Origin: Candidatus Beckwithbacteria bacterium
Lineage (GTDB): Bacteria; Patescibacteriota; Microgenomatia; UBA1400; UBA1449
NCBI GenBank assembly: GCA_012798485.1
Contig: JAAZND010000102.1
Span: forward strand, 1-61,132
Length of the DNA: 61,132 nucleotides
Direction of reading: 5' to 3'
Shown: positions 8,373-36,421 of the stretch, piece by piece
Position numbering within the stretch: position 1 is the stretch's first letter
How the letters are laid out: each line of letters starts with the position of its first letter
The notes under the pieces: generated by a model
Databases searched by the model: none
The model's input: the letters and a program-made list of their open reading frames with translations, nothing else
What the model was told of the DNA's origin: nothing
Position numbers and translations under genes: made by a program

Positions 8373-8373
8373 A

Positions 8374-9543: not shown

Positions 9544-11312
9544 TTAATTAAACTGACCAAAACATCGCAAACAAAATCGATATCTTTTTCAGTTAGATTA
9601 GCGGCTGACGGAAGATTGAAACCATTTTTTTCTACCTCACTGGCTACTGGATTTTTTAATAATTTTAAATTTTTATAAACGGGAAAACGACTCATTCTAG
9701 GGAAAGTCTCTCGTCCATGAATATTATATTCTCGCATTTTGGCAATCAATTCATTTCTGGAAATTTTCTTAGATTTGAGTAAAACTCCAGGATAACAGTA
9801 ATTGGACCGAGTGCCTTTTGGCTCAACAATTAATTCTAATTCTTTGATATCTTTTAATCTTTCATAATACCAAGAGAAAATTTTTCTTTTAATCTGAACT
9901 AATTCTTCTATTCTTTCCACTTGGGCGCGAGCCAAAGCAGCTGTCACATTCGCCATTTGATATTCGTACCCCAGAATATCACACCAAAAATTGGCCAATC
10001 GATTTGTTCTTCCCATATTACTTAACAGAATTGCCTGTTCATACATCTCTTTACTATTGGTTAAAAACATACCGCCTTCTCCAGAAGCAGCAATTTTTGC
10101 TCCATGGAAAGAAATACAACCGACATCACCAAAAGAACCAGCTTTTTTATTTTTATAAAGTGTGCCAAGAGCAGGAGCTGAATCTTCCACAATTTTTAAA
10201 TTATATTTTTTGGCAATTTTTTTGATTGCATCCCAATCAGCTGATTGGCCAAATGAATCTACCACCATAATCCCTTTAGTCTTTTTAGTAATCGCTTTTT
10301 CGATCGCCTTAGGATCAATACACCAAGTTTTGGGATCAATATCAACAAAAATTGGAGTTGCGCCGGTATAATTAATAACATAAGCTGTGGCTACCCAACT
10401 AAAATCGGTACAGATCACTTCATCACCTTTTTTAAAGCCACAAGTTAGACAAGCCAAATGCAAAGAATGAGTGGCACAAAAACCGGCAAGAGCATATTTG
10501 ACTCCTATATAATCTGCAATAGTTTTTTCTAAAGCCTTGATATCTTTATCAAACGTTTCATAAAAACCATGCTTCACGCCGTCAATCACATAATCAATTT
10601 CTTTTTTAGTAATCGATGGACCAGCAAAACTAATTTTTTTGTCTGATCTTTTAAATTGGGGTTTAATGTTTGTTTGTTTGAGTTTCATATAGATTTCATA
10701 TTTGTTTATAACTTTTTTATAACCTTTTGGAGCAGGAATCCATTCAGGAAATCCTTTCTCGTTAACTTGAATTAAGGGAACTTTTTTAAATTCCACAAAT
10801 CCAAGCTTTTGATACAAATTAAGAGCTTTTTCATTATTAGAAAATGTTTGCAAGGTATAATTTTTTAAACCCAATTCTTTTTTTCCCCAGGCTAACATAT
10901 AAGAAATAGCATTGCCCATAATCCCAGGATATTTTTCCACTCCTCGAACAATGTTATCGATTTCACAAGTCAAATTTTTAAAATCAAAACGGAATAAACC
11001 AATATGTCCAATAAATTCTCCTTTGACTTTAATTATAAAAAGCAAACGATCAGGAGTGTTAATAAGTCTTTCTTCAAGCCATTTTTTAGTTCCGGGAATA
11101 GTCACTTTAAATTGAGAAGGAAACCAGATTTCATGCTTTTTGCGCCAGTTGGCTAAAAGCTTGACAATTTGAGGTTTATTTATGCAGTCTTGAGTAATAA
11201 AAAGCAGTTCATATTTTTGCTTTTCAAAAACACCATCTATTTTTATTTCACCAAAAGTATTATTTTTAAATTTAGAAATCTGTTGAATTATTTGTTTTCT
11301 ATTCGGCTTCAT
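9540..11312 (-). CDS. Bifunctional fusion: N-terminal GNAT N-acetyltransferase (RimL/PseH-like) plus C-terminal DegT/DnrJ/EryC1 sugar aminotransferase
   Basis: 590 aa. Residues about 40-200 are GNAT (NWRKKH, GHIGLF, NLYQKLGFVEF). Residues about 215-590 are the DegT fold (ISFHGAKIAASGEGG with the Lys retained). Confidence 0.75.
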   Translation of the reverse strand: MKPNRKQIIQQISKFKNNTFGEIKIDGVFEKQKYELLFITQDCINKPQIVKLLANWRKKHEIWFPSQFKVTIPGTKKWLEERLINTPDRLLFIIKVKGEFIGHIGLFRFDFKNLTCEIDNIVRGVEKYPGIMGNAISYMLAWGKKELGLKNYTLQTFSNNEKALNLYQKLGFVEFKKVPLIQVNEKGFPEWIPAPKGYKKVINKYEIYMKLKQTNIKPQFKRSDKKISFAGPSITKKEIDYVIDGVKHGFYETFDKDIKALEKTIADYIGVKYALAGFCATHSLHLACLTCGFKKGDEVICTDFSWVATAYVINYTGATPIFVDIDPKTWCIDPKAIEKAITKKTKGIMVVDSFGQSADWDAIKKIAKKYNLKIVEDSAPALGTLYKNKKAGSFGDVGCISFHGAKIAASGEGGMFLTNSKEMYEQAILLSNMGRTNRLANFWCDILGYEYQMANVTAALARAQVERIEELVQIKRKIFSWYYERLKDIKELELIVEPKGTRSNYCYPGVLLKSKKISRNELIAKMREYNIHGRETFPRMSRFPVYKNLKLLKNPVASEVEKNGFNLPSAANLTEKDIDFVCDVLVSLIK

Positions 11313-11331: not shown

Positions 11332-12660
11332 ATGAAAAAAAAGATAAGCAAATACTGTCTAAAATATTTTTCAAAATACTCTCATATACATCTCAGTTTT
11401 TATGGTAAACTAAAAAAGTTTATGCAAAATAAAAAGTATATTCCAGTTTCAGGCAAGGTTTTTAATCAAGAAGAAATTGATAATGCAATAGAAGCAGCCA
11501 AAGATTGTTGGTGGACTGAAGGCAAATTTAGTAAAACTTTTGAAAACGATTTTAAAAAATTTTTAGGAGTGAAGTATGTTTCTTTAGTCAATTCTGGATC
11601 AAGTGCTAACCTTCTTGCTCTTGCCTGCCTTACTTCTGAAATTTTTGGCGATAAAAAACTAAAAGCAGGAGATGAATTTATCACTACTCCTGTTGCTTTT
11701 CCTACAACTGTTAATCCGGGAATTCAATATGGACTAAAACCGGTTTTTATCGATGCTTGTGTGAATACTTTAAATATTGATGTCAAACAAATCGAAAAAG
11801 CGATTAGTAAAAAAACCAGATTGATTATGCTTGCCCACACTCTTGGTTTTTCTTACAATCTAAAAGAAATTTTAAAATTGGTCAAAAAATATAAGCTCTG
11901 GTTTATTGAAGATTGTTGTGATGCACTTGGATCAAAATATAATGACAAATTCTTAGGCACTTTTGGTCACTTGGCTACTTTCAGTTTTTATCCTGCTCAT
12001 CATATCACTATGGGCGAAGGCGGAGCTGTGATTACTAATGACCCTCTTATTCATAAATCTATACGTCAATTTAGAGATTGGGGCAGAGATTGCTGGTGTG
12101 GTACTGGCGAAGATAATACCTGTAAAAATAGATTCAAATGGAAACTAGGAGAATTACCTTTGGGCTATGATCACAAATATATTTATTCCCAAATTGGTTA
12201 TAATTTGAAACTTACAGACTTTCAGGCAGCAATTGGGGTTGCCCAGCTCAAAAAATTACCCAAATTTATCAAACAAAGAAAAACAAATTATAAAATTTTA
12301 TATGACTTTTTTAAGCAATATGAAAAATATTTTATTCTGATGAAAGAAGAAAAAAATGCCGATAATTCTTACTTTGGGTTCCCAATTATAGTAAAAGATA
12401 ACGCTCCTTTTACGAGAAATGAACTCACTGAATATTTAGAAAACAATCAAATTGCCACCAGAAATATTTTTGCTGGCAACTTACTTCGTCACCCAGCTTA
12501 CTTGAAATTAAGAAAAAATTTTAGAATAATAGGAAGTATGGAAAACGCTGACTTGATTATGAACAATGCTTTTTGGCTTGGAGTCTGGCCTGGAATAAAA
12601 AAACAAGATTACAATTTTATTTTAAAAACATTACAAAAATTTTTAAAAAAATATGAATAA
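11332..12660 (+). CDS. rfbH: PMP-dependent sugar 3-dehydrase (CDP-4-keto-6-deoxy-D-glucose 3-dehydrase, E1 type)
   Basis: DegT-family fold with His in place of the Schiff-base Lys (FSFYPAHHITMGEGG) and Cys motifs EDCCDALG and RDWGRDCWCGTGEDNTC, as in the [2Fe-2S] enzyme E1/DdhC. The start could also be ATG 11422. The long form keeps an RfbH-like N-terminal segment. Confidence 0.8.
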   Translation: MKKKISKYCLKYFSKYSHIHLSFYGKLKKFMQNKKYIPVSGKVFNQEEIDNAIEAAKDCWWTEGKFSKTFENDFKKFLGVKYVSLVNSGSSANLLALACLTSEIFGDKKLKAGDEFITTPVAFPTTVNPGIQYGLKPVFIDACVNTLNIDVKQIEKAISKKTRLIMLAHTLGFSYNLKEILKLVKKYKLWFIEDCCDALGSKYNDKFLGTFGHLATFSFYPAHHITMGEGGAVITNDPLIHKSIRQFRDWGRDCWCGTGEDNTCKNRFKWKLGELPLGYDHKYIYSQIGYNLKLTDFQAAIGVAQLKKLPKFIKQRKTNYKILYDFFKQYEKYFILMKEEKNADNSYFGFPIIVKDNAPFTRNELTEYLENNQIATRNIFAGNLLRHPAYLKLRKNFRIIGSMENADLIMNNAFWLGVWPGIKKQDYNFILKTLQKFLKKYE

Positions 12661-15221: not shown

Positions 15222-15791
15222 ATGGGAAAAAATAATATTTTTATTCACCCAACTGCTATAGTGGATACAACAAACATTGGAGAAAAATCAAAAATCTGGG
15301 CTTTTGTTCATATCTTGAAAGGTGCTAAAATTGGAAATAATGCTAATATTTGTGATCATTGTTTTATAGAAAATGAAGTAAATATAGGTAATAATGTCAC
15401 AATTAAATGTGGTGTCTGGATCTGGGATGGATTAACTATTGAAAATAATGTTTTCATTGGGCCAAGTGTTGTTTTTACAAATGACTTGTATCCAAGAAGT
15501 AAAAATATTCATTACAACAAAAAAAAGACAACTCTTAAAGAGGGGTGTTCTATAGGAGCTAATGCAACCATACTTGCAGGTATTACTATAGGAAAACATG
15601 CTATGATAGGTGCGGGATCAGTGATCACAAAAAATGTCAATGATTTTGAAATAGTTTATGGCAACCCTGCAAGACAAAAAGGGTTTGTCTGCAAATGTGG
15701 AGAAAAAATAAAATTTGATAATAATCTTTTTGTTTGTAAATGCGGAGAAAGCTTTAAAAAAGAAAATAACTTTATTAAAAATATCAATTAA
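15222..15791 (+). CDS. Left-handed beta-helix sugar N-acetyltransferase (FdtC/WlbB/WxcM N-domain type) with a Cys-rich tail
   Basis: IHPTAIV, repeated hexapeptide IG-x4 units, and FTNDLYPRS. The C-terminal tail is CKCGE-x10-CKCGE. Confidence 0.75.
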
Positions 15792-15801: not shown

Positions 15802-16866
15802 TTATTTTTCCTTATTAAGGAATTTTCTTATTATTTTTCTAAATTTTGTATCTTTATAGTTTATTTTTTGAGATTTACTATCAAAATTTATCTTATTTAC
15901 CAAACTAATAATATCTTTATATTGAATCGAGTAAAGAGAATTTAATAACTTTAAATTTTTGGTATCTTTAATAAAGTTTAAAATAGTTTCATATCCCCAT
16001 TTTTGACGTATCTGATCATCTGTTTTAAGAGCTATTTTCCCCAAAAAATAGGGAATAGTTTCTCTTGTTGGTTTTCCAAAAACTTTAAAATCTTGACTAA
16101 ATACTTTGATAAATAAATTAATATCCATTTTTAAAAAATTATCTAAAACAAATGGTAGCTCTAAATTCTGACGTAAAATCGACAGATTACTATGATTATC
16201 TATTTGGCTCCCATTGATCATTTGTCGATATTTAACTAATGGCTTTTGATAAATATAAATTTTATTTTTTAAAAGTGTTCTGACATGGAAATCATAGTCT
16301 TGAGTTTGAAGTAATGCTGGATTAAAAAAACCAATTTGTTTTAAAATAGATTTTCTAATAATTTCTCCAGGAGCTGGTAATCTATTCCCATAGATAAACA
16401 TTTCTCTTATAAGCTGAAATCTATTTGTATTTTTAAATTTCAAAATTTTTTGTAATTATTTATCTTTCAAAAGATGATTATTTTCATCTATTCCTTCTAA
16501 CTGAAAAAATAATGCATTATATTGTTTGTTTTTTTCTAAATAATTAATTCCTTCCTGTAAATAAGTTGGACAAACTTCATCGTCTGAAGCTATAAAAACA
16601 ATATATTCCCCTACACTATTTTTTATTCCATCATTAAAACCAATTGATGGTCCCATATTATAATGATGTTCAATTATTTTAATTCGAGAATCTTTATAAG
16701 ATTTAATAATATTTAAAGTATTGTCTAAAGATCTATCGTCAATAATTATCAACTCAAAGTCAGTAAAAGTTTGAGCTAAAATACTATTAAGAAATTTAGC
16801 CACATATTTTTCATGAAGATAGCTTGGAGAAATGATAGATACTTTCGGTTTATTCTTAGAATTCAT
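15802..16866 (-). pseudogene. GT2 glycosyltransferase interrupted by one in-frame TAA (16456-16458)
   Basis: ORFs 16456-16866 (GT2 N-domain: VSIISPSYLHEKYV, IIIDDRSLDNT, ASDDE) and 15802-16443 (GT2 C-terminal part) are in the same frame. They are separated only by TAA plus four sense codons (LQKI). Confidence 0.6.
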
Positions 16867-17953
16867 TTAAAACCTTTACTATTTTTTTAACTTCCGCTTG
16901 ATTAAGTACAGGACTTATAGGAATGCTAAGGACTTCATTATGAATTTGTTCAGTAATTGGATATTTAAATTTATTCCATTCCTTATAAGCTAATTGTTTA
17001 TGAGGAGGAATTGGATAATGAATAAGTGATCCAATTTGATTGTCTAAAAGATATTTTTGTAATTTATCTCTATTTTTTGACCTAACAACAAAAACATAAA
17101 AATTATGACCATGAAAATCTTTGACTAATGGCAGAATTATTTTTTGATTGTGAATATTTTCAAAATAATATTTTGCTATCTCTCTTCTTTTTTGATTATC
17201 TTTGTCTAAATATTTAAGTTTAACATTAAGTATTGCTGCTTGAATATCATCTAAGCGACTATTAATCCCTTTATAAATATTGATATATTTAACTGAGGAT
17301 CCATAATTAGCAAGAATTCTTATTGTTTTTGCTAATATCTGATCATTGGTAGTAATAGCTCCTCCATCTCCTAATGCTCCAAGATTTTTTCCTGGATAAA
17401 AACTAAAACCAGAAACATCTCCTAAATTCCCTGCTTTTTTATTTTTATATATAGATCCATGAGCCTGAGCAGAATCTTCAATAACTTTTAATTTATATTT
17501 TTTTGCTATTTTCCAAATTTTTTCCATTTCTACTACTTGACCATATAAATGAACTACTAAAATGGCTTTAGTTTTTCTTGTTATTTTTTTTTCAATCAAG
17601 GCTGGATTAATATTGTAATTATCAATATCTGGCTCAACTAAAATTGGCTTTAAGTTATTAGCAGAAATTGCCAAAATTGAAGCAATAAAAGTATTAGCAG
17701 GCACAATAATTTCGTCTTGAGCTTTTAATAGCCCCAATTCTCTATAACCTTTAAAAATTAAATTAAGTGCATCAAATCCATTCCCTACGCCAATGCAATA
17801 TTTCGTACCAATATATGAAGCAAAATTAATTTCAAATTCTTTAAGTTTATCACCTAAAATATAGTGACCAGAGTTTAGAAACTCTTGAAAAGTTCGCTCA
17901 ATTTCTGGGCGATATTTTTGATTAATTTGGTAAAGATCTAAAAAGGGAATCAT
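16856..17953 (-). CDS. DegT-family sugar aminotransferase, FdtB/QdtB-like (3-aminotransferase type)
   Basis: [12 protein letters not shown]-terminus, [25 protein letters not shown] with Lys. Confidence 0.8.
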
Positions 17954-17956
17954 AAA

Positions 17957-18937
17957 TTATAATAAATCTTTTAGGTATTTTTTGTAATAGAGCTTTAAGA
18001 TTTTCTTATTTTTTACTATATATCTAATTATTGGATATTTTTCTAGACGACTATATTGGGTCCATATTTTTAGATCTTTATTTGGAAATTTGATGAAATT
18101 AGTTTTGGGATTAAAAATATCAGAGTAACGATAATTTTTGTGAATATAATATAAAATCCATGCCATTTCATTCTTATAGTTGTTCTTAAAATATTGAAAG
18201 TCTGTAGGCATTATTTCTGAATAATAGTTATTATATTTGTAATTTAACATTATATTAATTAAATAAATTACAATATTATTAAATTTCTCTTGTTCTTTTC
18301 TGTCAACTGATGACCAAACCCCTTTATGGTTATAGCGATAAACTGACAAGGGTTTATCATAATAATAACAATTTCCTTTTGATAATAAATAATGATACTG
18401 AAAAATATCTCCCGGAGGTAAATTTTTTATATTACGGAAAACTCTGGCTGAAGTATGAGTATAAATTTGATTTATCAAACTAAATTTATTATTAAGAACA
18501 TTATTTCTTTTGATCAATAATTCTTTTCTATTATCTGGATATAAGATATAAGAATTATGAGCGAACATAATACAATCTGAATTCTGGTCAAGCGAATCAA
18601 CTGCTTTTTGTAATTTATATGCATCAATCCAGTAATCATCTCCTTCACAAAGAGCTATATATTTACCTTTCGCACTTGGAAGTAAAAATGTTTTTAATAT
18701 CCCAGTTTTAATTTTACTAAGTTGATTTTCTTTTTGGATAACTAATTTAATTATATTGGGAAATTTTTTTTGATATTCTTTTAGTATTTCTGGGGTTTTA
18801 TCTGTAGAAGCATCATCGTGAATCAAAATTTCATAATCAAAATTTGTTTTTTGCATCAAAAAAGAATCTATTGTTTGAGATATATACTTTTCATGATTAT
18901 AAGCAAGACATAATATTGATATTTTAGGAAACTTCAT
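17957..18937 (-). CDS. GT2 glycosyltransferase
   Basis: ISILCLAYNHEKYISQTIDSFLMQ, ILIHDDASTDKT, CEGDDYW. Confidence 0.75.
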   Translation of the reverse strand: MKFPKISILCLAYNHEKYISQTIDSFLMQKTNFDYEILIHDDASTDKTPEILKEYQKKFPNIIKLVIQKENQLSKIKTGILKTFLLPSAKGKYIALCEGDDYWIDAYKLQKAVDSLDQNSDCIMFAHNSYILYPDNRKELLIKRNNVLNNKFSLINQIYTHTSARVFRNIKNLPPGDIFQYHYLLSKGNCYYYDKPLSVYRYNHKGVWSSVDRKEQEKFNNIVIYLINIMLNYKYNNYYSEIMPTDFQYFKNNYKNEMAWILYYIHKNYRYSDIFNPKTNFIKFPNKDLKIWTQYSRLEKYPIIRYIVKNKKILKLYYKKYLKDLL

Positions 18938-19943
18938 TTTTTAAAATTATTGGATTTATCTGTTTAATACCTATAGTTCCAGTATTATATAATAAAAATT
19001 TACTATTCACTTTTTTTTGGTTAAGCATATTAATTATTGCCTTAGGAAAATTAACTCCAGCCAAATGAGAAAATGGATATTGACCACCAAAACGGCAGTT
19101 TAAATCAATTACATAATACTTATTATTATTATAAATGATATCAACATCTAAGTTGGCAACATGTTTTAACTTGTTTGATAAGGTTTTAGCTATAATTGAT
19201 ATACTTTTGTTTTTAATGATTATGGCGCTATCTGTTTCTCCAGCTCTCATAGATAATTTTTTTTTGGAAACACTAGTTAGATAATTAGAATTTAAATCAT
19301 TAAAAATATCAACTCCATATTCTGAACCATTAATTTTTTCTTGAATAATAATACTTTTTTCAATATCTTGACTTGATTCATATTTGATGTGGTTTGAGGC
19401 AATTTCTTGTTTAATTTTATTAAATAAAATTATTAATTCATGATAATTATTTACCTGATAAGTAGACAATGACCCAGTTCCCCATCTTGGTTTGATAATT
19501 AATGGATAATTTATCAATCCTCTTTTAATTTTTTTTTGACTTTCCAATATTGATAATGAAGATTCTGGTGTATTAATTTTAATCGATTTTAAAAACTTAT
19601 ACGTATTCCATTTGTCATTACAGATGTTAATAACCTTGCTATCAGAAACAACGAGTTTAATATTGTGTTTGTCAAATTTTTCCTTATTTACTGACAATTT
19701 CCATAAATCAAAATCAAACAATGGAATTATTGCTTTGATCTTATTTTTTAAACAATAATCAATTAAAAATTGAATATATTGCCTATGATTAATTAATGGT
19801 GTTATAACAGCTTTATCTGCACATTGAAGAGCATCTGACCATAATGAATTAGAAGCATGCACTTCACCATTTCCATTTAGGGCTTCTTTAAAATAATTAA
19901 TTAAATAAGATCTTCTTCCCGCAGAAGTAATTAAGATATTCAT
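18924..19943 (-). CDS. ATP-grasp ligase
   Basis: ILITSAGRRSYL pre-ATP-grasp N-terminus, PLIIKPRWGTGS, IIQEKINGSEYGVD, DLNCRFGG. Confidence 0.65.
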   Translation of the reverse strand: MNILITSAGRRSYLINYFKEALNGNGEVHASNSLWSDALQCADKAVITPLINHRQYIQFLIDYCLKNKIKAIIPLFDFDLWKLSVNKEKFDKHNIKLVVSDSKVINICNDKWNTYKFLKSIKINTPESSLSILESQKKIKRGLINYPLIIKPRWGTGSLSTYQVNNYHELIILFNKIKQEIASNHIKYESSQDIEKSIIIQEKINGSEYGVDIFNDLNSNYLTSVSKKKLSMRAGETDSAIIIKNKSISIIAKTLSNKLKHVANLDVDIIYNNNKYYVIDLNCRFGGQYPFSHLAGVNFPKAIINMLNQKKVNSKFLLYNTGTIGIKQINPIILKNEVS

Positions 19944-20896
19944 ATCAATTTATTAAGATGAGAAAGCATATTTAAAAATCCTCCAGTATGCCAAAAAATC
20001 ACCTTAGATTTGGGTTTAATTTTACCCTGAATAACATAATCCCTTAACCCAGTAAAGGCTTTACCGGTGTATATTGGATCCAATAAAAGTCCTTCGGTTT
20101 TAGCCGCCCACTTAATATTTTGAATTATGTTAGAACTACTAATTTTATAGCCTATTGAATATGAATCATCAAAAAATATTCTTTGCTTTTTGTCAGTAAT
20201 TTCGTTAGATAAATATAACTGATTAAGTAATTTTTTAATTGCCGGAATAGCAATCTCTTTCTTTCGTGCGATGGAAATGCCAATAACTTTAGTGTTAGGC
20301 AAATATTGACTACAACCAACAATTATGCCTACTTGCGTAGTTCCCATTCCACTAGCTAAAAAAATATAATCCGGATAATCTTTTTTATCGATTTGCTTTT
20401 TTAGTTCATTTACAGCCTCATAGTAAGCATAGGCTCCTTCAACTGAATAAGCTCCTCCCCATAAGTAAAATGGGTTATATTTTTGTTTTTTCAATTTAAT
20501 TATAGCTTCATCCATCTTTATCGATACCTCCGATTTATTAATAAAGATAGTTTTTGCTCCAGTTAAACAACATAATTTGTAGTTTAAATATGTATCTCTT
20601 TTTTTAGATTTAGATGAATGAATTAATAGTAATGACGGTAGGCCTAACTGCTTGGAAATAATAGCTAATGATCTTAAGTGGTTCGATTCAATATCTCCAA
20701 TGCTAACAATATAATTATAACCGTTATCTTGAACAGTTTTTAAAATATAATAGAGCATTCTTGCTTTATTACCTCCACCAGGAATCTCAAATAAATCATC
20801 ATGTTTTACCCATAGCCTTATACCTAATTCTTTTGATATTTTTGGATAATAATTAATTGGAGTTGGATTAAAATTAAAATGATCAAACTTTATCAT
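19940..20896 (-). CDS. Fold-type II PLP enzyme, ACC deaminase/D-cysteine desulfhydrase family
   Basis: GGNKARMLYYIL (family GGNK motif with the Lys) and the glycine loop ASGMGTTQVG. 318 aa. Confidence 0.7.
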   Translation of the reverse strand: MIKFDHFNFNPTPINYYPKISKELGIRLWVKHDDLFEIPGGGNKARMLYYILKTVQDNGYNYIVSIGDIESNHLRSLAIISKQLGLPSLLLIHSSKSKKRDTYLNYKLCCLTGAKTIFINKSEVSIKMDEAIIKLKKQKYNPFYLWGGAYSVEGAYAYYEAVNELKKQIDKKDYPDYIFLASGMGTTQVGIIVGCSQYLPNTKVIGISIARKKEIAIPAIKKLLNQLYLSNEITDKKQRIFFDDSYSIGYKISSSNIIQNIKWAAKTEGLLLDPIYTGKAFTGLRDYVIQGKIKPKSKVIFWHTGGFLNMLSHLNKLI

Positions 20897-21399
20897 ATTT
20901 TTTTTTCTAGATAAAAAGTAAATCTACCATCTGGTCTATCCTGAATTTTATTAATTATTTTAAAACCTAATGATTTGTACATTTTCAAAGGAATACTATT
21001 ATCCCAAGTTTTTATACCTAAGATTTTAAAGTTAAGTTTTTTTAAATAGTTTAGACAATAACAAAATAGGGTTTTCATTATTCCATTTTCTCTATAATCT
21101 TTTCTAACTCCTAGCACAGGAATATAAGAATATTTTGTTTTATGATTATTACAATAAAAACAAAGTAGAGCAATAATCTGATTATTTTTTTGGTCAAAAG
21201 CCAAAATAATTTCAGATTTAGTATATAATTTATTCGCCCAAAATTTTAAATTTACTCTTAGACTTAATGGCGGAAAAAAATCCTGATCTAATTCAACTAA
21301 CAAATTGTAAATATCTTTTTCTAAAAATTTAGTATTTTTTATAGAATTGATTAATATGTTAGGAAAAATAGATTCTTTTATTTTTTTTGACTTTTCCAT
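20893..21399 (-). CDS. GNAT N-acetyltransferase
   Basis: 168 aa. GNAT motif A region LGVRKDYRENGIMKTL and C-terminal MYKSLGFKI. Confidence 0.6.
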   Translation of the reverse strand: MEKSKKIKESIFPNILINSIKNTKFLEKDIYNLLVELDQDFFPPLSLRVNLKFWANKLYTKSEIILAFDQKNNQIIALLCFYCNNHKTKYSYIPVLGVRKDYRENGIMKTLFCYCLNYLKKLNFKILGIKTWDNSIPLKMYKSLGFKIINKIQDRPDGRFTFYLEKKI

Positions 21400-22268
21400 A
21401 TAATGTGTTTATATATCGGCTTATTATCAAAATAATCAAAAATTTTTCTTAATTTATTTTCTTTACTTTTTATTTCATCTTCAGATAACTCACCTCTAAC
21501 CATTTTAATTCTGAGAATTGATGGCAATAATGATAATCCATGCTTATCTATTATATTAAACCCGGATTTTTGTAATAATTGGCTAATTTCATCTTGACTG
21601 AATAGCTTAAACTTAAAATTTGTTTTTCCTTTTTCTTCTTTAAATTTTCTTTTCTCAAAATTTTCTATTAGATCATCAATTTCTTCAAAATAAATCGACT
21701 TGAAAATTGCACCACTTAAATCTGGCTCAGAATTAATTAATATTCCTTTTGTTTTTAACAATCTTTTAGATTCAGATATTGCCAACTCACATTTATCATT
21801 AAGATAATAAAAAACACCTATGGCTAAGGCTAAATCAACTGATTCAGTCTTTATGGGAATATCTTCAGCGCTACAATTAATTATTAATACTTTGTCTTGG
21901 AAATTATTTTTAATAATATAATTTCTTAAAGAAAGTAAAGGTTTTATATGAGAATCTGTAGCAATAATTTTTTGAAAACCTTTTTTTAATAAATATTCTG
22001 TAAATCTACCATCACCACAACCGATATCAACAGCAACTGTTTCTTTAGTAATTCTAAAATTTGAAAGAAATTTTTCTAAAGCATTATGATAATACGGTCT
22101 CTCCCAATAAGCTAAATGAAGAGGAAATTCTTGCAATTCTCTTAAAGCTGCTCCTTTGGGCATTTTGTTATGAAACTCAATAGCTAGGCTTTTTTTATAT
22201 TTACATAAATAAATTCCATCGTGCTCTTTTAACTGATTGTTAAAAATATTTTTTTTCCAATTAATCAT
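21378..22268 (-). CDS. Class I SAM-dependent methyltransferase
   Basis: Motif I VDIGCGDGRFTEYLLKKGF, and later LLKTKGILI. Confidence 0.7.
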   Translation of the reverse strand: MINWKKNIFNNQLKEHDGIYLCKYKKSLAIEFHNKMPKGAALRELQEFPLHLAYWERPYYHNALEKFLSNFRITKETVAVDIGCGDGRFTEYLLKKGFQKIIATDSHIKPLLSLRNYIIKNNFQDKVLIINCSAEDIPIKTESVDLALAIGVFYYLNDKCELAISESKRLLKTKGILINSEPDLSGAIFKSIYFEEIDDLIENFEKRKFKEEKGKTNFKFKLFSQDEISQLLQKSGFNIIDKHGLSLLPSILRIKMVRGELSEDEIKSKENKLRKIFDYFDNKPIYKHIIWKSQKK

Positions 22269-22279
22269 AATATAAGATG

Positions 22280-23365
22280 TTAAAAACTTTGTTTAATAAT
22301 TGAATATATATTATTTATCTCTTTCTTTTTTAACCTATAGTATAAAGGCAGACATAAAATTCTACTAGCAATATTTTCACTGATTGGCATTTTCTGATCT
22401 TTTATATAAGGAAGGTTAGATAAAGAAGGATAAAAATAACGACGAGGATAAATATCAGATTGATTAAGCTTTGATAGAGTTTTTAATAATTGAATTTCTG
22501 AAGGAAAAATTACTGGATAATATGAATAATTTAATTCTGCGCCTGGTAATAATTTGGGTTTAATTAAGTTTTGATCATTTTTAAATAATAATTGATTATA
22601 GTGATTACAAATTTTTCTCCGATTCTCTATGTTTTTTTTAATATATTTTAAATTAGCTAAGCCCATAGCAGCATGGAGTTCAGAATTTTTCCCATTAATA
22701 CCTAATCCAAAATAATCATATAAGCCATTATGACCAAAATTTCTTAAAAAAGAAATTTTATCAGCAATTTTTTTATCATTTGTAATAATTGCTCCACCTT
22801 CAACTGTATGAAAAATCTTCGTTGTGTGAAAACTCAAAATCGAAATATCTCCATAAGAAGTTAGTGCTTTACCTTTATATTTTGCTCCAAAAGTATGAGC
22901 TCCATCATAGATAATTTTTAAATTATATTTTTTGGCAATCTTTTTAATTTTTTCTATATTACAAGGAAAGCCAAAAACATGAGTAGGTAAAATAACTTTA
23001 GTCTTTCTAGTAATTGCCTTCTCGATAAATTCAGGATTGAGAGTAAGAGTATCTGGATCAATATCAACAAAAACTGGTTTATAACCTTCCCAGATAATAG
23101 ATGAGGTTGTTGCGACATATGAAAATGGCGTAGTTATGATTTCACTGTTTTTTGGCAAACCTAACGATTTAATTGCAATCTGCAAAGCAATAGTACCATT
23201 AGTAACAAAAAATATATATTTAACTCCAAGATATTTTTTTAGTTTTTTTTCTAAGCGTTTAACAAATTGACCGTTATTAGTCAACCATCCGGATTGCCAA
23301 ATTTTTTCTAAGTATTTTTGATATTCTGATAATGGAGGTAAAAAAGTTTTGGTTACTGGAATCAT
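22280..23365 (-). CDS. DegT/DnrJ/EryC1 sugar aminotransferase
   Basis: WLTNNGQFVKRLE, NGTIALQIA, LSFHTTKIFHTVEGG with Lys. ATG at 23365; the track start 23380 is TTG. Confidence 0.8.
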   Translation of the reverse strand: MIPVTKTFLPPLSEYQKYLEKIWQSGWLTNNGQFVKRLEKKLKKYLGVKYIFFVTNGTIALQIAIKSLGLPKNSEIITTPFSYVATTSSIIWEGYKPVFVDIDPDTLTLNPEFIEKAITRKTKVILPTHVFGFPCNIEKIKKIAKKYNLKIIYDGAHTFGAKYKGKALTSYGDISILSFHTTKIFHTVEGGAIITNDKKIADKISFLRNFGHNGLYDYFGLGINGKNSELHAAMGLANLKYIKKNIENRRKICNHYNQLLFKNDQNLIKPKLLPGAELNYSYYPVIFPSEIQLLKTLSKLNQSDIYPRRYFYPSLSNLPYIKDQKMPISENIASRILCLPLYYRLKKKEINNIYSIIKQSF

Positions 23366-23449
23366 ATTAAACTGCTGCAAATAACACAGTTTCTTTTAGA
23401 TGAATTGTTGCATGTTTTAAGTAATATTTATAATATTTATAAAGATCTT

Positions 23450-25057
23450 TTAATTGAAAAGGCTAATAAATATATAGAAAACTTGTTTGACAATTATAAA
23501 TAATGAATACAAAATTAAATTAATTTTACTTATAAATTTTACTTTAATCTTATTCTTGTTTTTAAATATTTTTTTCACAAAACTAATAAAATTAAATTGT
23601 TTATATATTTTGTGTTTTAATAGCTTATTACTCTTTTTAGCCAAAATCAATATTTTGCTAATTTGTCCACCATTAATAATTGTTTTGATATTAAAAATAA
23701 TCGTATCTCTATCAATAAAAAATTTGTTAATAACCGGAATTTGATTAATTATTAAAAGAATTAGATAAATGATCAGCTTTACTCTGGATTTAAATTGTAA
23801 ATTAGTATTTTTATCTTTTAAAACCATAATTTTAAAATCTTCGAAAGGTTCAATGACTGGATAATAATCAATTCTTTTAATAGAGCCCAAAGCTTTATTA
23901 AAAAATTTAATATTAGTAATTTGTTCTAAATCTTTTAATCTAAAAGAAAATCTAAATTTTTTATTAATAATTTCCTGACAAGAAAGAACAATTTCTCTTC
24001 TCAAATTATCTTCTTTTAATAATTTTCTGCAAACTTCATAAGCTTCATACTTGTTTTTATATGTTGGAATTTTAATTTTAGGAAATAACTGCTTCATGTC
24101 TTGTTTAAATTCGGTTACTAAACAAGCATTGCTTGCCATAATATCGCAAACTCTCCATGAAAAACCAGTTTTTGCCTGAATATGATTAATATTGATTCCT
24201 ATTTTTGAAGAATTATAAAGATTTTGATTATGTTTAAGAGAATAGACTAATTTATTTTTATAGCTTAAAATTATCTCTAACTCATTTGGTAAATCTTCAA
24301 TCCAATTTTTAGTGCCATAAATAGCTAAACCAAGACTACTAATAATAGATAAAGTTTGGATTCTATTTTTAGAAGAAAGATTCTCTATTAATTCTTTCAT
24401 TATTAAATGATTTTTTATTTTATTTGACTTTACCTTAAATTTATCAATTATTTCATTTTCATTTATAAAAGGATTTTCTTCTACATATTTTAAAATTTGT
24501 TTAAATTTATTAATTTCATTTTCGTCTGGATCGGTTGCCATAAAATTACTTATAATATTATTTGAGTTAAATTTTGTTCCAATAAAAACAATATTATTTT
24601 TGATTTGAATATCCTCTGCTACAACTGAAGTAGAAAAAGGTAAATAATGAATAAGAGATTTTTTAGGATTAAACATCTCTTCTGTAACCTTAAGAGACGA
24701 TGTTTGAGCTAGTATATAAATATACCTATTAGGATTTTCTTGAATATTTTTTATATTAGAAAAATAAAGAGGACTATCTACTTCCCAAATAATGATTGGG
24801 CAAAAAAATTCTTTTGATAAATCAAAACAACAATTATTAAATATAATAATTAAATCAGGATTAAAAAGCCTTAATTTATTTATAAAAACTTTTGGTGCTT
24901 TAGGAAAATCTTGAGCCCAGCTTCTATTATCATAATAGAGGATCTCATTCCCTGCTTTCTTAAGTTCAAAAAATAGGCTCTCGTAAAAACATGGAATAGC
25001 ATTAGAGTTTTCAAAATCAGAAATACCATTAAAAAATGAAATAAATATTTTTGCCAT
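23450..25057 (-). CDS. CgeB-like (GT-B related) glycosyltransferase with a hydrophobic C-terminal tail
   Basis: 535 aa. The central and C-terminal region (GININHIQAKTGFSWRVCDIMASNACLVTEF) resembles the CgeB/Glyco_trans_1_2 type. The last roughly 130 aa hold two hydrophobic segments. Confidence 0.4.
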   Translation of the reverse strand: MAKIFISFFNGISDFENSNAIPCFYESLFFELKKAGNEILYYDNRSWAQDFPKAPKVFINKLRLFNPDLIIIFNNCCFDLSKEFFCPIIIWEVDSPLYFSNIKNIQENPNRYIYILAQTSSLKVTEEMFNPKKSLIHYLPFSTSVVAEDIQIKNNIVFIGTKFNSNNIISNFMATDPDENEINKFKQILKYVEENPFINENEIIDKFKVKSNKIKNHLIMKELIENLSSKNRIQTLSIISSLGLAIYGTKNWIEDLPNELEIILSYKNKLVYSLKHNQNLYNSSKIGININHIQAKTGFSWRVCDIMASNACLVTEFKQDMKQLFPKIKIPTYKNKYEAYEVCRKLLKEDNLRREIVLSCQEIINKKFRFSFRLKDLEQITNIKFFNKALGSIKRIDYYPVIEPFEDFKIMVLKDKNTNLQFKSRVKLIIYLILLIINQIPVINKFFIDRDTIIFNIKTIINGGQISKILILAKKSNKLLKHKIYKQFNFISFVKKIFKNKNKIKVKFISKINLILYSLFIIVKQVFYIFISLFN

Positions 25058-25063
25058 TTTATA

Positions 25064-25462
25064 TTACTTCTTAATTGTTTTGATGAACTTTTTATAATCT
25101 CTAATATATTCTTCTTCATTATATTGTTTATTAGCCAAAACTATGAGGATGCAGTCTTTAGAAAAATTATATATTTCTCTCCATATATTTTTACCAATAT
25201 AAAGACCTACGTCAGGAGAATTTAACTCAATTACTTCTTTTTTTAATCCATCATCTAATAAAAATTTACAACTTCCATTGACACAAACTACAACTTGTTT
25301 TAGGCTAGTATGAGCATGCTTACCACGCACAACATTAGTTTTTGTACCATAAATATAATAAACACGATTAATTTTAAAAGGAATATTTTTACTCTGTTCA
25401 AGAGAAATCAATGAACCACGATCATCGCCCATAATATTAAATTTTAAGAGCTTATATTTCAT
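25064..25462 (-). CDS. fdtA: NDP-4-keto-6-deoxyhexose 3,4-ketoisomerase (FdtA/WxcM C-domain cupin)
   Basis: 132 aa with near full-length resemblance to FdtA: DDRGSLISLE, IPFKINRVYYIY, RGKHAHTSLKQVVVCVNGSC, SPDVGLYIG. Confidence 0.85.
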   Translation of the reverse strand: MKYKLLKFNIMGDDRGSLISLEQSKNIPFKINRVYYIYGTKTNVVRGKHAHTSLKQVVVCVNGSCKFLLDDGLKKEVIELNSPDVGLYIGKNIWREIYNFSKDCILIVLANKQYNEEEYIRDYKKFIKTIKK

Positions 25463-26583
25463 ATTATTTTTTGTAACCTTGTAATTGTTTTATCCCAATT
25501 CATCGCTTGTACAGTTTTATAAGAATTGGTTTGTAAATAATTATATAATTTTTGATTACTTATTAATTTATTTAGTAATTGTTTAGTTTTTTTTACATTT
25601 GAAAATTCAGTCAATAAAGCATTATATCCATCTTTTATATATTCTTCACATCCAGTCACCTGAGCAACAATTGGAACTCCACCGCAAGCCATCATTTCTA
25701 ATGGAGGACCGAAGAAGCCTTCAACTCTAGATAATTTTAACATAATATCACATGAAGAATAGATATGTCGCATTTCTTGCATAGGTACTTTTTCAAAAAA
25801 ACGGTCACAATGCCATTCTGGTTTTGGTCTTCCATCATAAGATACACACCAAACCTCACAATCACAATCTTGAACGATTTTAAAAGCTTGCTCCATTCCT
25901 TTAAAAGGAAGATTAATTGCTCCTTCCAATAAAATTCTTTTTTTGTTTTTAGGTTTTGGTGTTAATAAAGTATCAGGATAAAATATATTAGTATTAATGC
26001 CGTTTGGAATATAATAAGAATCTTGATTGAAATTATTTTTTAAAAACTTCTGGAGCCATTTAGCAATAGTTATAAACTTAAATGGAAAAGTATAAGTTCG
26101 TTTAACTCTAGTCTTTAGATAACTACCTATGGGATAAAATCTAGTTTCATCTGACTGAACTAAATACATCTTTCTTCTAACTTTAATTAACAAAAGTTCA
26201 TACGCAGTAATCCAACCAGTTGCTACAACAGTTTCATATCTTTCTATGAGTTTCTGATTCCCTTTTAAAGGAACAACTTTTACCGACTGATTAGGAAACC
26301 AAGATAAATCAGTTTTATTATCACAACTAACAATTAAAGTTTTATAACCAAGTTTTTTTAAACGATTTAAATGTTCACATACTACAGCTACTCCTCCTGT
26401 AATTTTTGTTGCAGGGATAATATAGCAAATAGATTTATCTAAAATATTTTTTGTCAAATCATTGGAATTAATGATTTTTGACTTTAAATATCTAAAAATA
26501 AATATAATATCGTCATAAATATATTGTAGATTACGAATTTGAGTACGGATAATTTCCGGAACTAATTGACGATAAATTCTCAT
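25459..26583 (-). CDS. Glycosyltransferase, GT-B fold (GT4-like)
   Basis: 374 aa. SRVEGFFGPPLEMMACGGVPIV (E-x7-E variant). ATGA overlap with fdtA. Confidence 0.6.
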   Translation of the reverse strand: MRIYRQLVPEIIRTQIRNLQYIYDDIIFIFRYLKSKIINSNDLTKNILDKSICYIIPATKITGGVAVVCEHLNRLKKLGYKTLIVSCDNKTDLSWFPNQSVKVVPLKGNQKLIERYETVVATGWITAYELLLIKVRRKMYLVQSDETRFYPIGSYLKTRVKRTYTFPFKFITIAKWLQKFLKNNFNQDSYYIPNGINTNIFYPDTLLTPKPKNKKRILLEGAINLPFKGMEQAFKIVQDCDCEVWCVSYDGRPKPEWHCDRFFEKVPMQEMRHIYSSCDIMLKLSRVEGFFGPPLEMMACGGVPIVAQVTGCEEYIKDGYNALLTEFSNVKKTKQLLNKLISNQKLYNYLQTNSYKTVQAMNWDKTITRLQKII

Positions 26584-27513: not shown

Positions 27514-28317
27514 ATGGCTATACTCTATAAAAAATTCAGCGAAAATCTCAAACTTTTTTGGGAATTTAGAGAATTACTCAAAAATCTGGTCAAAAGAGAA
27601 ATTGCTCAAAGATATAAACAATCTATTTTGGGTTATGCTTGGATTATTTTAAATCCGCTTTTCCAACTCGTTGTTATGAGTTTTGTTTTTGGAGTAATTT
27701 TAAAAGTTTCGTCTTTGAATGTTCCCTTTATTATTTTTTTATCAGTAGCTCTACTTCCTTGGAATTTTTTTGCAACCAGTCTTTCTACTTCATCAGGAGT
27801 TTTAGTTAATAGTAGTTCTTTAATCACTAAAATTTATTTTCCTAGAGAAATTTTGGTTTATGCCAATATGTTTGCTAAATTAATTGATTTTGCTCTTTCC
27901 CTGCTTATTCTTATTGTCTTTTTCTTAATTTTCAAAATCCCCTTTACTATATATTTTTTCTGGTTTATTCCTATTTTAATTGTCCAAATTATTTTTACTA
28001 CTGGTTTATCTTTAATTACTTCTGCTTTTAATCTTTTTTATCGAGACATTCAATATTTATTAAACTTGATTCTTATTCTCTGGATGTATCTTACTCCAGT
28101 AATGTATCCTGTTGAACTAATTCCTAATAAATATCGTTTTATTTTTAAATTTAACCCTATGGCTGTGATAGTCAACGCTTATCGACAGATTTTATTAGGC
28201 AAAAGCGAACCTAATCTTGGCAGCTTATCTATTGCTTTGTTTATTTCTATATTTATCTTTATTTTTGGCTTTTTCATTTTCAAAAAATTAGAAGGGAAAT
28301 TTGCCGACTATGTCTAA
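27514..28317 (+). CDS. wzm: ABC-2 type polysaccharide/teichoic-acid exporter permease
   Basis: 267 aa with about six hydrophobic segments. N-terminal RYKQSILGYAWIILNPL is typical of Wzm/TagG. Confidence 0.8.
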   Translation: MAILYKKFSENLKLFWEFRELLKNLVKREIAQRYKQSILGYAWIILNPLFQLVVMSFVFGVILKVSSLNVPFIIFLSVALLPWNFFATSLSTSSGVLVNSSSLITKIYFPREILVYANMFAKLIDFALSLLILIVFFLIFKIPFTIYFFWFIPILIVQIIFTTGLSLITSAFNLFYRDIQYLLNLILILWMYLTPVMYPVELIPNKYRFIFKFNPMAVIVNAYRQILLGKSEPNLGSLSIALFISIFIFIFGFFIFKKLEGKFADYV

Positions 28318-29038
28318 TGATTTTATTATCAAAGCCGAAAATTTGCATAAACTCTATAGCTTAAACAAACAGCGAACGTTTAAAGAATTTTTGCCTGCAC
28401 TTTTTAGTGGGGCTGAAACGAAATATAGTTTCCATGCGCTAAACGGGATTAATTTTGAAATTAAAAAAGGCGAATCCTTAGCTATTTTAGGCAGAAATGG
28501 TAGCGGCAAATCCACTTTACTTAAAATTATTGCCGGCGTAACTAAACCATCTGATGGGAAAATTACGGTCAACGGCAAGGTTTTTCCTCTTATTGAACTT
28601 GGAGCTGGTTTCCACCCAGAACTTACTGGCAAGGAAAATGTTTATCTGAATGGATCTATCCTTGGTATCAAAGAAAAAGAAATGGATAAGCTTTATAATC
28701 AAATCGTTTCCTTTGCCGAACTAGAACAATTTATGCATGAACCAGTAAAACATTATTCTTCCGGAATGTATATGCGTCTTGCTTTTGCTGTGGCTGTGGC
28801 TAAAATCCCTAACATACTTCTAGTTGATGAAATTTTAGCTGTCGGCGATCTTAGGTTCCAAAAAAAATGTTTGAGTAGAATCAAGGAATTTCAAAATCAA
28901 GGGACTACTCTTATTATAGTTTCTCATTCTCGTAAAACAATTGAGGATTATTGCCAAAAAGGACTCTTAATTAACAATGGAAATCAATTATATTTTGGTG
29001 AAGTCAAAAAGGCTTTGGAAAAATACGCCCAGATTTAA
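28310..29038 (+). CDS. wzt: ABC polysaccharide exporter ATPase, short form without a C-terminal extension
   Basis: Walker A GRNGSGKST, signature YSSGM, Walker B LLVDE. ATG 28310 overlaps the wzm stop; the track start 28301 is TTG. Confidence 0.85.
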   Translation: MSNDFIIKAENLHKLYSLNKQRTFKEFLPALFSGAETKYSFHALNGINFEIKKGESLAILGRNGSGKSTLLKIIAGVTKPSDGKITVNGKVFPLIELGAGFHPELTGKENVYLNGSILGIKEKEMDKLYNQIVSFAELEQFMHEPVKHYSSGMYMRLAFAVAVAKIPNILLVDEILAVGDLRFQKKCLSRIKEFQNQGTTLIIVSHSRKTIEDYCQKGLLINNGNQLYFGEVKKALEKYAQI

Positions 29039-35602: not shown

Positions 35603-36421
35603 ATGTCTCAAACAATTACTATTATCAAACCAAAATCAAAATTAACTCTTCTAGACCTCAAAGAAATTTGGCAATTTAAAGAATTATTCTTTACCTTTGC
35701 CCATAGAGATATCAAACTTAGATATAAACAAACTATCATTGGGGGACTTTGGGCAATAATTCAACCATTAACTACGATGATAATTTTTAGTTTCTTTTTT
35801 GGGAAACTTGCCAAAATCCCTTCTGACGGAGTACCTTATCCTATTTTTTCTTATTCTGGACTTTTATTATGGACTTTTTTTGCCAATGCTATTTCCATGG
35901 CTAGTGTCAGTATGATCAATAGCGCTTCAATTATTACCAAAGTTTATTTTCCACGCCTTATTGTCCCTGTTTCTGCAACTATAGTTTTCTTTATTGATTA
36001 TTTTATTTCTTTTTTTATCTTATTATTCTTAATCTTTTTTTATAAATTCCCCCTGAGAATAGAATTACTTTTACTTCCTTTAATTTTATTTTTCACTTGG
36101 ATTTTAGCTTGTGGGATTGGTTTAATCTTATCTGCTCTTAATGTTAAATACCGCGATGTCAGATACGCCATCCCTTTTTTATTACAGATCTTAATTTATA
36201 TTACACCGGTTATTTATCCAACTTCTGTTTCTGGAAAATTTCAATGGCTCGTTAACCTTAACCCAATGACTGGATATATCGAAGCTCATCGCGCTTTAAT
36301 TCTAGGACTACCATTTAATTATGGAGAGTTATTAATTTCTATTGGATTAACAATGATTATTTTAGTTTGTGGCATTTTCTATTTCAAATCAGTAGAGAAA
36401 AAATTTGCTGACATTATTTAA
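35603..36421 (+). CDS. wzm: ABC-2 type polysaccharide exporter permease (second copy)
   Basis: 272 aa. RYKQTIIGGLWAIIQPL, about six TM segments. Paralogue of 27514-28317. Confidence 0.8.
   Translation: MSQTITIIKPKSKLTLLDLKEIWQFKELFFTFAHRDIKLRYKQTIIGGLWAIIQPLTTMIIFSFFFGKLAKIPSDGVPYPIFSYSGLLLWTFFANAISMASVSMINSASIITKVYFPRLIVPVSATIVFFIDYFISFFILLFLIFFYKFPLRIELLLLPLILFFTWILACGIGLILSALNVKYRDVRYAIPFLLQILIYITPVIYPTSVSGKFQWLVNLNPMTGYIEAHRALILGLPFNYGELLISIGLTMIILVCGIFYFKSVEKKFADII

Follow-up and report, generated by a model that had tools for sequence, protein, structure and literature searches.

A candidate aminotransferase and ATP-grasp cassette for N-acylated 4-amino-4,6-dideoxyhexoses in a glycan locus of a Candidatus Beckwithbacteria bacterium, with a D-cysteine desulfhydrase-like enzyme as an optional accessory

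6-Deoxy-amino sugars bearing N-acyl or N-aminoacyl groups are common serotype determinants of O antigens and capsules, examples being 4-amino-4,6-dideoxyglucose (Qui4N), its 3-amino isomer (Qui3N), and bacillosamine carrying acetyl-alanyl, acetyl-seryl, acetyl-aspartyl, or hydroxyglutaryl groups; the genes that attach these acyl groups are mostly unassigned. The subject of this report is a cassette of six genes (positions 17957-23365, minus strand) within a contig of 61,132 nucleotides from a Candidatus Beckwithbacteria bacterium (JAAZND010000102.1, assembly GCA_012798485.1), the whole of which is referred to below as the window. We consider it probable, with some reserve, that this cassette builds and installs an N-acylated 4-amino-4,6-dideoxyhexose by nucleotide-sugar tailoring.

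The closest characterised analogue is the Pat/Pyl pathway of Bacillus cereus ATCC 14579, in which, to go by the title of Hwang 2014 as cited in PMC11626204, an ATP-grasp enzyme ligates 2-oxoglutarate to UDP-4-amino-N-acetylfucosamine to yield UDP-yelosamine. Such ATP-grasp genes cluster with those of small phosphoglycosyl transferases (PGTs), according to Imperiali's group (PMC11626204). As outlined in these sources, the pathway resembles the cassette in that a DegT-family enzyme places an amine at C4 of a 4,6-dehydratase product and an ATP-grasp enzyme then joins a small carboxylic acid to this amine, and its combination of small PGT, DegT, and ATP-grasp genes is the neighbourhood type of the Firmicutes versions of the cassette. 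The two differ in that Pyl, as described there, uses 2-oxoglutarate on a UDP-N-acetylhexosamine (UDP-HexNAc), whereas the cassette in the window belongs to the dTDP/Qui4N type and has in addition a DcyD-like pyridoxal 5'-phosphate (PLP) enzyme, a GNAT N-acetyltransferase, and a methyltransferase. By analogy, the window's ATP-grasp enzyme is likely to be homologous to Pyl, and its Bacillaceae homologues stand in the same kind of locus; no B. cereus Pyl homologue was found in the plasmid search. The first-pass annotation of this DNA had recognised no characterised pathway of this kind, a judgement that the shared logic of Pat/Pyl revises: the family is known in outline, and it is the PLP-containing variant and the acyl group that represent new ground.

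N-acyl Qui4N is also reached by the VioA/VioB and WbqC-type routes (E. coli O7, O121, and O123; S. dysenteriae 7), which share with the cassette the rmlB-rmlA-wzx-aminotransferase start and the product class, namely Qui4N with an acyl or N-acyl-aminoacyl group. Among these, E. coli O123, the O antigen of which contains Qui4N-D-Ala-3-hydroxybutanoyl, was considered as a model and rejected, as it relies on a WbqC-family protein and a hypothetical protein that has no Pfam match and no similarity to the cassette's ATP-grasp; an Acetyltransf_3 GNAT and a MaoC dehydratase complete the set, and, unlike the cassette, the cluster holds neither an ATP-grasp nor a fold-type II PLP enzyme. E. coli O123 represents a non-homologous solution to the same task. 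More distantly, the amine or carboxylate of a sugar is joined to an acid by ATP-dependent ligases in mycothiol biosynthesis (MshC/MshD), through the ATP-grasp domain of Neisseria PglB2 (glyceramido-trideoxyhexose), and through the C. jejuni amidoligase Cj1438; in the mycothiol case, the ligase MshC is homologous to Cys-tRNA synthetase, and the amino acid, once attached, is N-acetylated by a GNAT. These systems employ other ligase families and other acceptors than the cassette, and we know of none among them that includes a DcyD-like PLP enzyme. The sulfonated peptidylamido glycan of C. difficile type B flagellin (Fuc3N-Gly-Ala-taurine) is analogous in structure and was set aside as well, given that the paper describing it offers no gene tie to the cassette.

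The window is AT-rich (~25-30% GC), glycan-biosynthesis genes make up nearly all of it, and no tRNA genes were found in its 61 kb. Profile searches of the window proteins with Pfam and NCBIfam gave the following family calls for the cassette, listed in the order of transcription:

22280-23365, minus strand: DegT_b, a VioA/DesI-like sugar aminotransferase (Pfam DegT, NCBIfam DesI)
21378-22268, minus strand: class I S-adenosylmethionine-dependent methyltransferase (Pfam Methyltransf_11/25/23)
20893-21399, minus strand: GNAT N-acetyltransferase (Pfam Acetyltransf_1)
19940-20896, minus strand: fold-type II PLP enzyme of the D-cysteine desulfhydrase/1-aminocyclopropane-1-carboxylate (ACC) deaminase family (PALP, TIGR01275-like, AlphaFold2 model)
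18924-19943, minus strand: PylC-like ATP-grasp carboxylate-amine ligase (PF21360 and PF02655, NF009404)
17957-18937, minus strand: GT2 glycosyltransferase (Pfam GT2)

Adjacent genes overlap by 4-22 nt or are parted by a gap of 11 nt. ATGA motifs serve as GNAT stop and PLP start (20893-20896) and as PLP stop and ATP-grasp start (19940-19943); the methyltransferase and GNAT genes have 22 nt in common (21378-21399), as do the ATP-grasp and GT2 genes 14 nt (18924-18937), and the 11 nt gap separates the methyltransferase from DegT_b (22269-22279), for which ATG 23365 and TTG 23380 are both possible starts. The tight packing of five minus-strand genes, as originally described, is hence accurate at every junction coordinate, and all are real open reading frames (ORFs). 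The five genes are embedded in a minus-strand operon (15802-26583) with GT4, FdtA, and GT1-like genes upstream and the GT2, a second DegT (DegT_a), and a broken GT2 downstream. Packing of this kind is by itself ordinary for an operon; it is the recurrence of the gene order in unrelated genomes that puts the cassette beyond chance.

This recurrence was sampled in two ways. In the protein database, the PLP enzyme has 3986 homologues and the ATP-grasp enzyme 2384, many of them on the same contigs. In a PLP-based scan of one genome per species (79 loci), an ATP-grasp gene lay within 2.6 kb of the PLP gene in 10/10 loci with a PLP identity of at least 40%, in 22/24 at 35-40%, and in 19/45 below 35%; at identities of at least 35%, 32 of the 34 loci thus have the pair, mostly with the ATP-grasp gene directly downstream on the same strand. 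The range of the cassette extends over Bacteroidota, Gammaproteobacteria, Bacillota, Cyanobacteria, candidate phyla, and Methanosarcina. The order rmlB-rmlA-wzx-DegT-GNAT-PLP-ATP-grasp, with a GT2 or a WecF-like transferase after it, is common to Providencia sp. Me31A and three Pseudoalteromonas species, and four clinical E. coli plasmids of ~37 kb carry the cassette between insertion sequence (IS) elements under generic names from the PGAP annotation pipeline. One of these, pLAU-OXA3 (NZ_CP045280.1, 6667-15541; L080 among our loci), encodes in succession an epimerase, rmlB, rmlA, wzx, DegT, GNAT, PLP, ATP-grasp, and GT2; the plasmid stretch examined shows no gene annotated as a polymerase or an initiating transferase. 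The plasmid block is a mobile copy of the cassette and might give its host an extra surface glycan. More distant versions from Bacillota, Chloroflexota, and other groups combine the PLP/ATP-grasp pair with genes for a PglF-like dehydratase, a small PGT, a DegT, and an Acetyltransf_3 GNAT, a setting of the bacillosamine type. The original proposal had been staked on conservation of the linkage in relatives, and that linkage proved strong; the cassette is not unique to this locus, as thousands of homologues with the same neighbourhood are public, the four E. coli plasmids included.

Sampling through the ATP-grasp enzyme, which takes away the bias of the PLP-based search, altered the view of which genes are central. 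Eighty metagenome loci with ATP-grasps 47-57% identical to that of the window were collected, and counts were made on the 38 with at least 2.6 kb of upstream sequence. A DegT_b-like gene stands within 4.5 kb of the ATP-grasp gene in 32/38 loci (84%), ahead of any other gene; a capping enzyme (GNAT, formyltransferase, or left-handed beta-helix (LbH) acyltransferase) is present in 21/38, and a PLP gene lies directly upstream in 14/38. Abbreviating ATP-grasp as AG, the architectures seen are DegT-AG, DegT-GNAT-AG, DegT-PLP-AG, DegT-GNAT-PLP-AG, DegT-formyltransferase-AG, PLP-formyltransferase-AG, DegT-GNAT-methyltransferase-AG, DegT-LbH-AG, and DegT-(ornithine/diaminopimelate (Orn/DAP)-decarboxylase-fold PLP enzyme)-AG, the first of which occurs as a minimal pair with no other N-acyltransferase in L130, L137, L139, and L160. 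The constant core is therefore aminotransferase plus ATP-grasp, usually followed by a glycosyltransferase. The two nearest relatives of the window's ATP-grasp (61% identity; L083 and L170) are accompanied by methyltransferases and no PLP gene. A neighbour-joining tree of the ATP-grasps was tried as a divider between PLP-associated and PLP-free enzymes, a split that would have signalled a different donor, and was rejected for this use, the two kinds being interleaved. Because the PLP enzyme depends on the ATP-grasp and not the reverse, and because it is gained and lost among close ATP-grasps, it appears to be an accessory for donor supply or editing; the centre of the module is the aminotransferase and ATP-grasp core rather than the PLP enzyme. 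One metagenome contig (L169, 38% GC) repeats the full order of the cassette with an IS element between the GNAT and PLP genes, the identities being 57% for the methyltransferase, 45% for the GNAT, 50% for the PLP enzyme, 54% for the ATP-grasp, and 50% for the GT2. Elsewhere, a PLP enzyme of ~410 aa with the Orn/DAP/Arg-decarboxylase fold replaces the DcyD-like enzyme directly upstream of the ATP-grasp (L112, L128, L133, L152, and L153), and other loci contain a second, larger ATP-grasp (~415 aa), FemAB-like genes, or AsnB-like genes; these variations hint at longer, peptide-like acyl chains on the sugar.

The ATP-grasp ligase, the core enzyme of the cassette, scores 325.5 bits with NF009404, above the curated threshold of 316; this "carbamoyl phosphate synthase-like" model (PRK12767 subgroup) is itself without an assigned function. 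Its domains are a PylC-like N-terminal domain (PF21360, 83.9 bits) and an ATP-grasp_3 core (PF02655, 65.8 bits). The AlphaFold2 model (mean predicted confidence, pLDDT, 92.4) superimposes with a template-modelling (TM) score of 0.81 on 2pn1, an uncharacterised structural-genomics entry that is the sole close solved relative in both sequence and fold searches; the fold matches that follow are biotin carboxylases (E ~1e-18) and the L-amino-acid ligase BL00235 (PDB 3vot). Among 34 aligned homologues, 64 columns are invariant, including K151, E208, D266, D268, N282, and R284, residues that by analogy would bind ATP/Mg. The domain content likens the enzyme to PylC, the 3-methyl-D-ornithine--L-lysine ligase, and the fold to BL00235; PylC and the L-amino-acid ligases also resemble the proposed chemistry in that they activate the carboxylate of an amino acid and couple it to an amine that is not in the alpha position. 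It departs from PylC in scoring only 27.9 bits against the PylC model (cutoff 248) and in its predicted acceptor, which would be a nucleotide-sugar amine rather than lysine.

The PLP enzyme belongs to a separate, cassette-specific clade of the D-cysteine desulfhydrase/ACC deaminase family. It matches PALP with 123 bits and TIGR01275 with 189.7 bits (cutoff 289.4), and scores 153-156 bits against D-cysteine desulfhydrase equivalogs (cutoffs 429-610), 123.9 bits against ACC deaminase (cutoff 392), and 182.3 bits against CuyA (cutoff 450). Its AlphaFold2 model (pLDDT 91.8) matches S. typhimurium DcyD (4d8t) with a TM score of 0.92 at 28% identity, and alignment to 4d8t and across 30 homologues shows that the GGNK motif with the PLP lysine (K44), the carboxylate-binding S71-N72-H73 loop, the Y276-T277 pair, and the H303-T304-G-G motif are kept; the phosphate loop is likewise shared with DcyD. 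The enzyme nonetheless departs from DcyD in its sub-cutoff scores, its low identity, and the company of its clade, which nearly always lies by an ATP-grasp gene and is often fused to a GNAT, and from the ACC deaminases in having Tyr-Thr in place of their typical Tyr-Glu. Conservation of the DcyD pocket, of the carboxylate-binding S-N-H loop, and of the Lys/Tyr pair suggests that its substrate is a free amino acid of small size and Ala/Ser/Cys type. Full-text literature searches returned no paper that connects a glycan cluster with a DcyD-like enzyme, and UDP-yelosamine was their single relevant lead. A protein identical to the window PLP enzyme is encoded on a 1.9 kb contig (L084) of European Nucleotide Archive metagenome assembly ERZ928041 (PRJEB19890).

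As regards the remaining members, DegT_b (Pfam DegT, 316 bits) has DesI as its top NCBIfam model (231 bits, under the cutoff of 650) and is 44% identical to the gene at the vioA position of E. coli O123, 42% to the DegT of the Providencia cassette, and 60% to that of L083. Its top PDB match, 7b0d, reaches just 215 bits, compared with 504 bits (7n63) and 416 bits (QdtB) for DegT_a against 3-aminotransferases; DegT_b is predicted from these comparisons to be a C4 aminotransferase acting on a nucleoside diphosphate (NDP)-4-keto-6-deoxyhexose. The GNAT exceeds the gathering threshold of Acetyltransf_1 (35.7 against 20.7 bits), has MshD among its weak NCBIfam matches, and is the predicted capping enzyme for a free amine on the acyl group; a formyltransferase takes its place in L001, L005, L009, L026, L125, L142, and L167. 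The methyltransferase has a counterpart of 57% identity at the same position of L169 (DegT-MT-GNAT-[IS]-PLP-ATP-grasp-GT2, with MT denoting the methyltransferase) and another of 40% identity directly upstream of PLP-ATP-grasp in L025, and its recurrence in these two loci indicates that it belongs to the cassette; none was found in the other ~160 loci examined, and it ranks as an accessory tailoring enzyme and a rarer add-on. Lastly, the GT2 (Pfam GT2, 70 bits) has homologues of 35-55% identity directly after the ATP-grasp gene in L002, L003, L005, L009, L011, L013, L014, L169, and the E. coli plasmid, and the next gene downstream of the ATP-grasp is a GT2 or WecF-like glycosyltransferase in 24 of 54 ATP-grasp-sampled loci; it is the predicted transferase of the finished N-acyl amino sugar.

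The pathway proposed here draws on family assignments, conserved synteny, gene fusions, and modular swaps. Judging by homology and synteny, DegT_b would transaminate an NDP-4-keto-6-deoxyhexose, most likely dTDP-4-keto-6-deoxyglucose, to the 4-amino sugar. The PylC-like ATP-grasp would then convert the carboxylate of a small acid to an acyl phosphate and form an amide on the sugar 4-amine; that it acylates the amine made by DegT_b is the simplest reading because it holds the place of an N-acetyltransferase and is sometimes the lone acylating candidate. Since a dTDP-Qui4N-type sugar has one amine, yet two N-acylating enzymes are present, a further amine is expected on the acyl group, and the acid donor would most likely be an amino acid, our best guess being a C3 residue of the Ala/Ser/Cys type, possibly of D configuration. 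The GNAT would acetylate the alpha-amine left free on the amino acid, whether this is already attached or still incoming; GNAT and formyltransferase interchange at the same cassette position, and functional coupling is evident in fusions, in other organisms, of the GNAT to the N-terminus of the PLP enzyme (P0003, P0014, and P0051 among others) and to the ATP-grasp at one or the other terminus (P0169, P0220, and P0234). The methyltransferase may methylate the acyl group or the sugar, and the optional DcyD-like enzyme may supply or edit the donor with its amine kept, by racemisation or beta-replacement, which is the weakest step of the scheme; supply of a D- or beta-modified C3 amino acid is the role we rate most likely for it. 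The GT2 would pass the finished sugar into the glycan, which a neighbouring ABC transporter would export. A dTDP-Qui4N context is indicated by the rmlB-rmlA-wzx genes that precede the cassette in Providencia, Pseudoalteromonas, and the E. coli plasmids and by the GT2 or WecF-like, TDP-Fuc4NAc-type transferase that follows; the distant versions with PglF-like dehydratase and small PGT would apply the same logic to a UDP-4-amino-4,6-dideoxy-HexNAc. In this regard, polysaccharides of Pseudoalteromonas are known to contain Qui4N and Qui3N with N-acetyl-D-alanyl groups (PMC3210612), and many aminoacyl groups of O antigens are D-configured (PMC7685785). The original idea of an acyl or aminoacyl group in amide linkage to an amino sugar, with subsequent acetylation and methylation, is therefore favoured by comparative genomics; the uronic acid that it had offered as another acceptor is not, the 4-amino group made by the in-cassette DegT being much more likely. 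Synthesis of a non-standard amino acid, also part of that proposal, is conjectural.

Several points weigh against this scheme. No substrate, product, or glycan structure is tied to any cassette member, and the lone characterised analogue, Pyl, takes 2-oxoglutarate rather than an amino acid, to go by the title cited above; the likeness to Pyl is moreover one of locus type and described chemistry, by analogy, rather than of sequence alignment. A search of the window for rmlA, rmlB, wzx, and small PGT genes returned weak RmlB-like short-chain dehydrogenases/reductases alone: rmlA was not found, and the best rmlB-like gene (32951-33925) is just 34% identical, so that a dTDP carrier for the window cassette is an assumption carried over from its relatives. 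The window also holds a complete 3-amino-sugar route, the amine of which the ATP-grasp could in principle use. Finally, all DcyD pocket residues are kept in the PLP enzyme, which may for this reason carry out a deaminating beta-elimination (2-oxo acid and ammonia, plus sulfide from cysteine) in which the amine is lost. The main alternative is Pyl-like, in which the ATP-grasp would ligate a 2-oxo acid to the sugar 4-amine while the GNAT and methyltransferase act elsewhere, the donor being either 2-oxoglutarate, as the DegT by-product, or pyruvate/2-oxobutyrate from a DcyD-like deaminating elimination. The Pat/Pyl precedent is the basis for this alternative; the minimal DegT-ATP-grasp pairs would require no donor-supply gene, the known products of DcyD and ACC deaminase are 2-oxo acids, and the nearest ATP-grasp folds after 2pn1 are carboxylases and ligases of small acids. 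A 2-oxoacyl group, however, offers no amine to the GNAT or formyltransferase, and a dTDP-type sugar has no second one, yet these enzymes are present in 21/38 loci and the GNAT is found fused to the PLP enzyme or the ATP-grasp; pyruvate and 2-oxoglutarate, besides, are abundant, making a dedicated supply enzyme unnecessary. On balance, ligation of a 2-oxo acid is unlikely.

The cassette might alternatively comprise two modules, one in which DegT and the GNAT or formyltransferase make an N-acetyl or N-formyl 4-amino sugar and one in which the PLP and ATP-grasp enzymes amidate a uronic-acid carboxylate or other acceptor with an amino acid. Direct action on dTDP-4-amino sugars is indeed known for enzymes of the GNAT (WecD) and formyltransferase (VioF) types, and a WecF-like transferase follows the cassette in Providencia. 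Uronic acids with amide-linked amino acids are common in O antigens (PMC7685785), and the AsnB-like amidotransferase at 53914-55818 makes uronic-acid chemistry plausible in the locus. Such a division would nevertheless leave a bare amine wherever a DegT-ATP-grasp pair occurs without GNAT or formyltransferase, and it sits poorly with the fusions of the GNAT to both the ATP-grasp and the PLP enzyme, with the tracking of DegT by the ATP-grasp (84%) far above any other gene, and with the lack of consistent linkage to a UDP-sugar dehydrogenase in the loci examined; we regard it as quite improbable. Still further down the scale, and exceedingly improbable, is the idea that the PLP and ATP-grasp genes are housekeeping enzymes that lie in a glycan locus by chance, namely a D-cysteine desulfhydrase or cysteine synthase and a D-Ala-D-Ala ligase or carbamoyl-phosphate synthase fragment. 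Public annotations do read "D-cysteine desulfhydrase" and "carbamoyl-phosphate synthase large subunit"; the scores, on the other hand, lie far under every housekeeping equivalog cutoff, with the D-Ala-D-Ala ligase models giving ~30 bits (NF002378, 29.9 bits against 243; NF011169, 27.1 bits against 404), the desulfhydrase values falling short as given above, and no cysteine synthase model matching the PLP enzyme among NCBIfam at E <= 0.01, where just the SbnA family appears with 15 bits. The translational-coupling overlaps with neighbouring genes, the synteny with sugar genes across phyla and on plasmids, and the GNAT fusions are likewise at odds with a chance placement, and the refutation by housekeeping function that the first-pass annotation had named therefore fails.

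It is also conceivable, if distinctly unlikely, that the DcyD-like enzyme runs chemistry new to glycan pathways and does more than supply the donor. As a racemase or epimerase of fold type II, it may generate the D-aminoacyl groups that occur in many O antigens; it may act on the sugar-attached aminoacyl group, with beta-elimination or replacement leading to dehydroalanyl, thiol, or other beta-substituted acyl sugars; or it may free sulfide from cysteine, which the ATP-grasp would then use in a step to a thio-acid or thioamide. Any of the three roles, if true, would amount to a new and phylogenetically very broad enzyme activity and account for a whole class of unassigned O-antigen substituents.

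Given its spread over broad phyla, its carriage on plasmids, and its modularity, with swappable capping and donor-editing enzymes, the cassette is a strong candidate for one general solution to acyl attachment. Assignment of its chemistry would aid the prediction of glycan structure from sequence, to the benefit of serotyping, phage and vaccine targeting, and glycoengineering, and would give the "D-cysteine desulfhydrase-like" clade a real function. The value of the window copy is modest, as it is one more copy, from an uncultured low-GC organism, notable mainly for the added methyltransferase; the main interest lies in the family-level biochemical gap, namely what the DcyD-like accessory does and which acyl group is attached, rather than in the window locus itself.

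Other sugar modules surround the cassette. The complete route to a 3-acetamido-3,6-dideoxyhexose is split around it and consists of the 3,4-ketoisomerase FdtA (25064-25462), the QdtB/WlaRG-like 3-aminotransferase DegT_a (16856-17953; matches 7n63, WlaRG 5u1z, and QdtB 3frk), and an LbH acetyltransferase of the NeuD/VioB family on the opposite strand (15222-15791). Between the latter two, the broken GT2 (15802-16866, minus strand) is interrupted by a single in-frame TAA at ~16453-16455 that leaves ORFs of 136 and 213 aa, which means either that it became a pseudogene recently or that the stop is a variant of the population or the assembly. A further module, which suggests CDP-based synthesis of an amino sugar that is branched or 3,6-dideoxy, comprises the following genes:

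4729-5508: glucose-1-phosphate cytidylyltransferase-like
5462-6589: CDP-glucose 4,6-dehydratase-like
6630-8477: acetolactate-synthase-like thiamine pyrophosphate enzyme, which could be YerE-type and add a two-carbon branch
8374-9543: class I aminotransferase
9540-11312: GNAT-DegT fusion protein
11332-12660: RfbH/E1-type 3-dehydrase (630 bits, over the cutoff)

Two pairs of ABC-2 permease and ATPase genes (27514-29038 and 35603-37425) point to glycan export dependent on an ABC transporter, and the AsnB-type glutamine amidotransferase (634 aa, 53914-55818), which lies among glycosyltransferases, may amidate a uronic acid.

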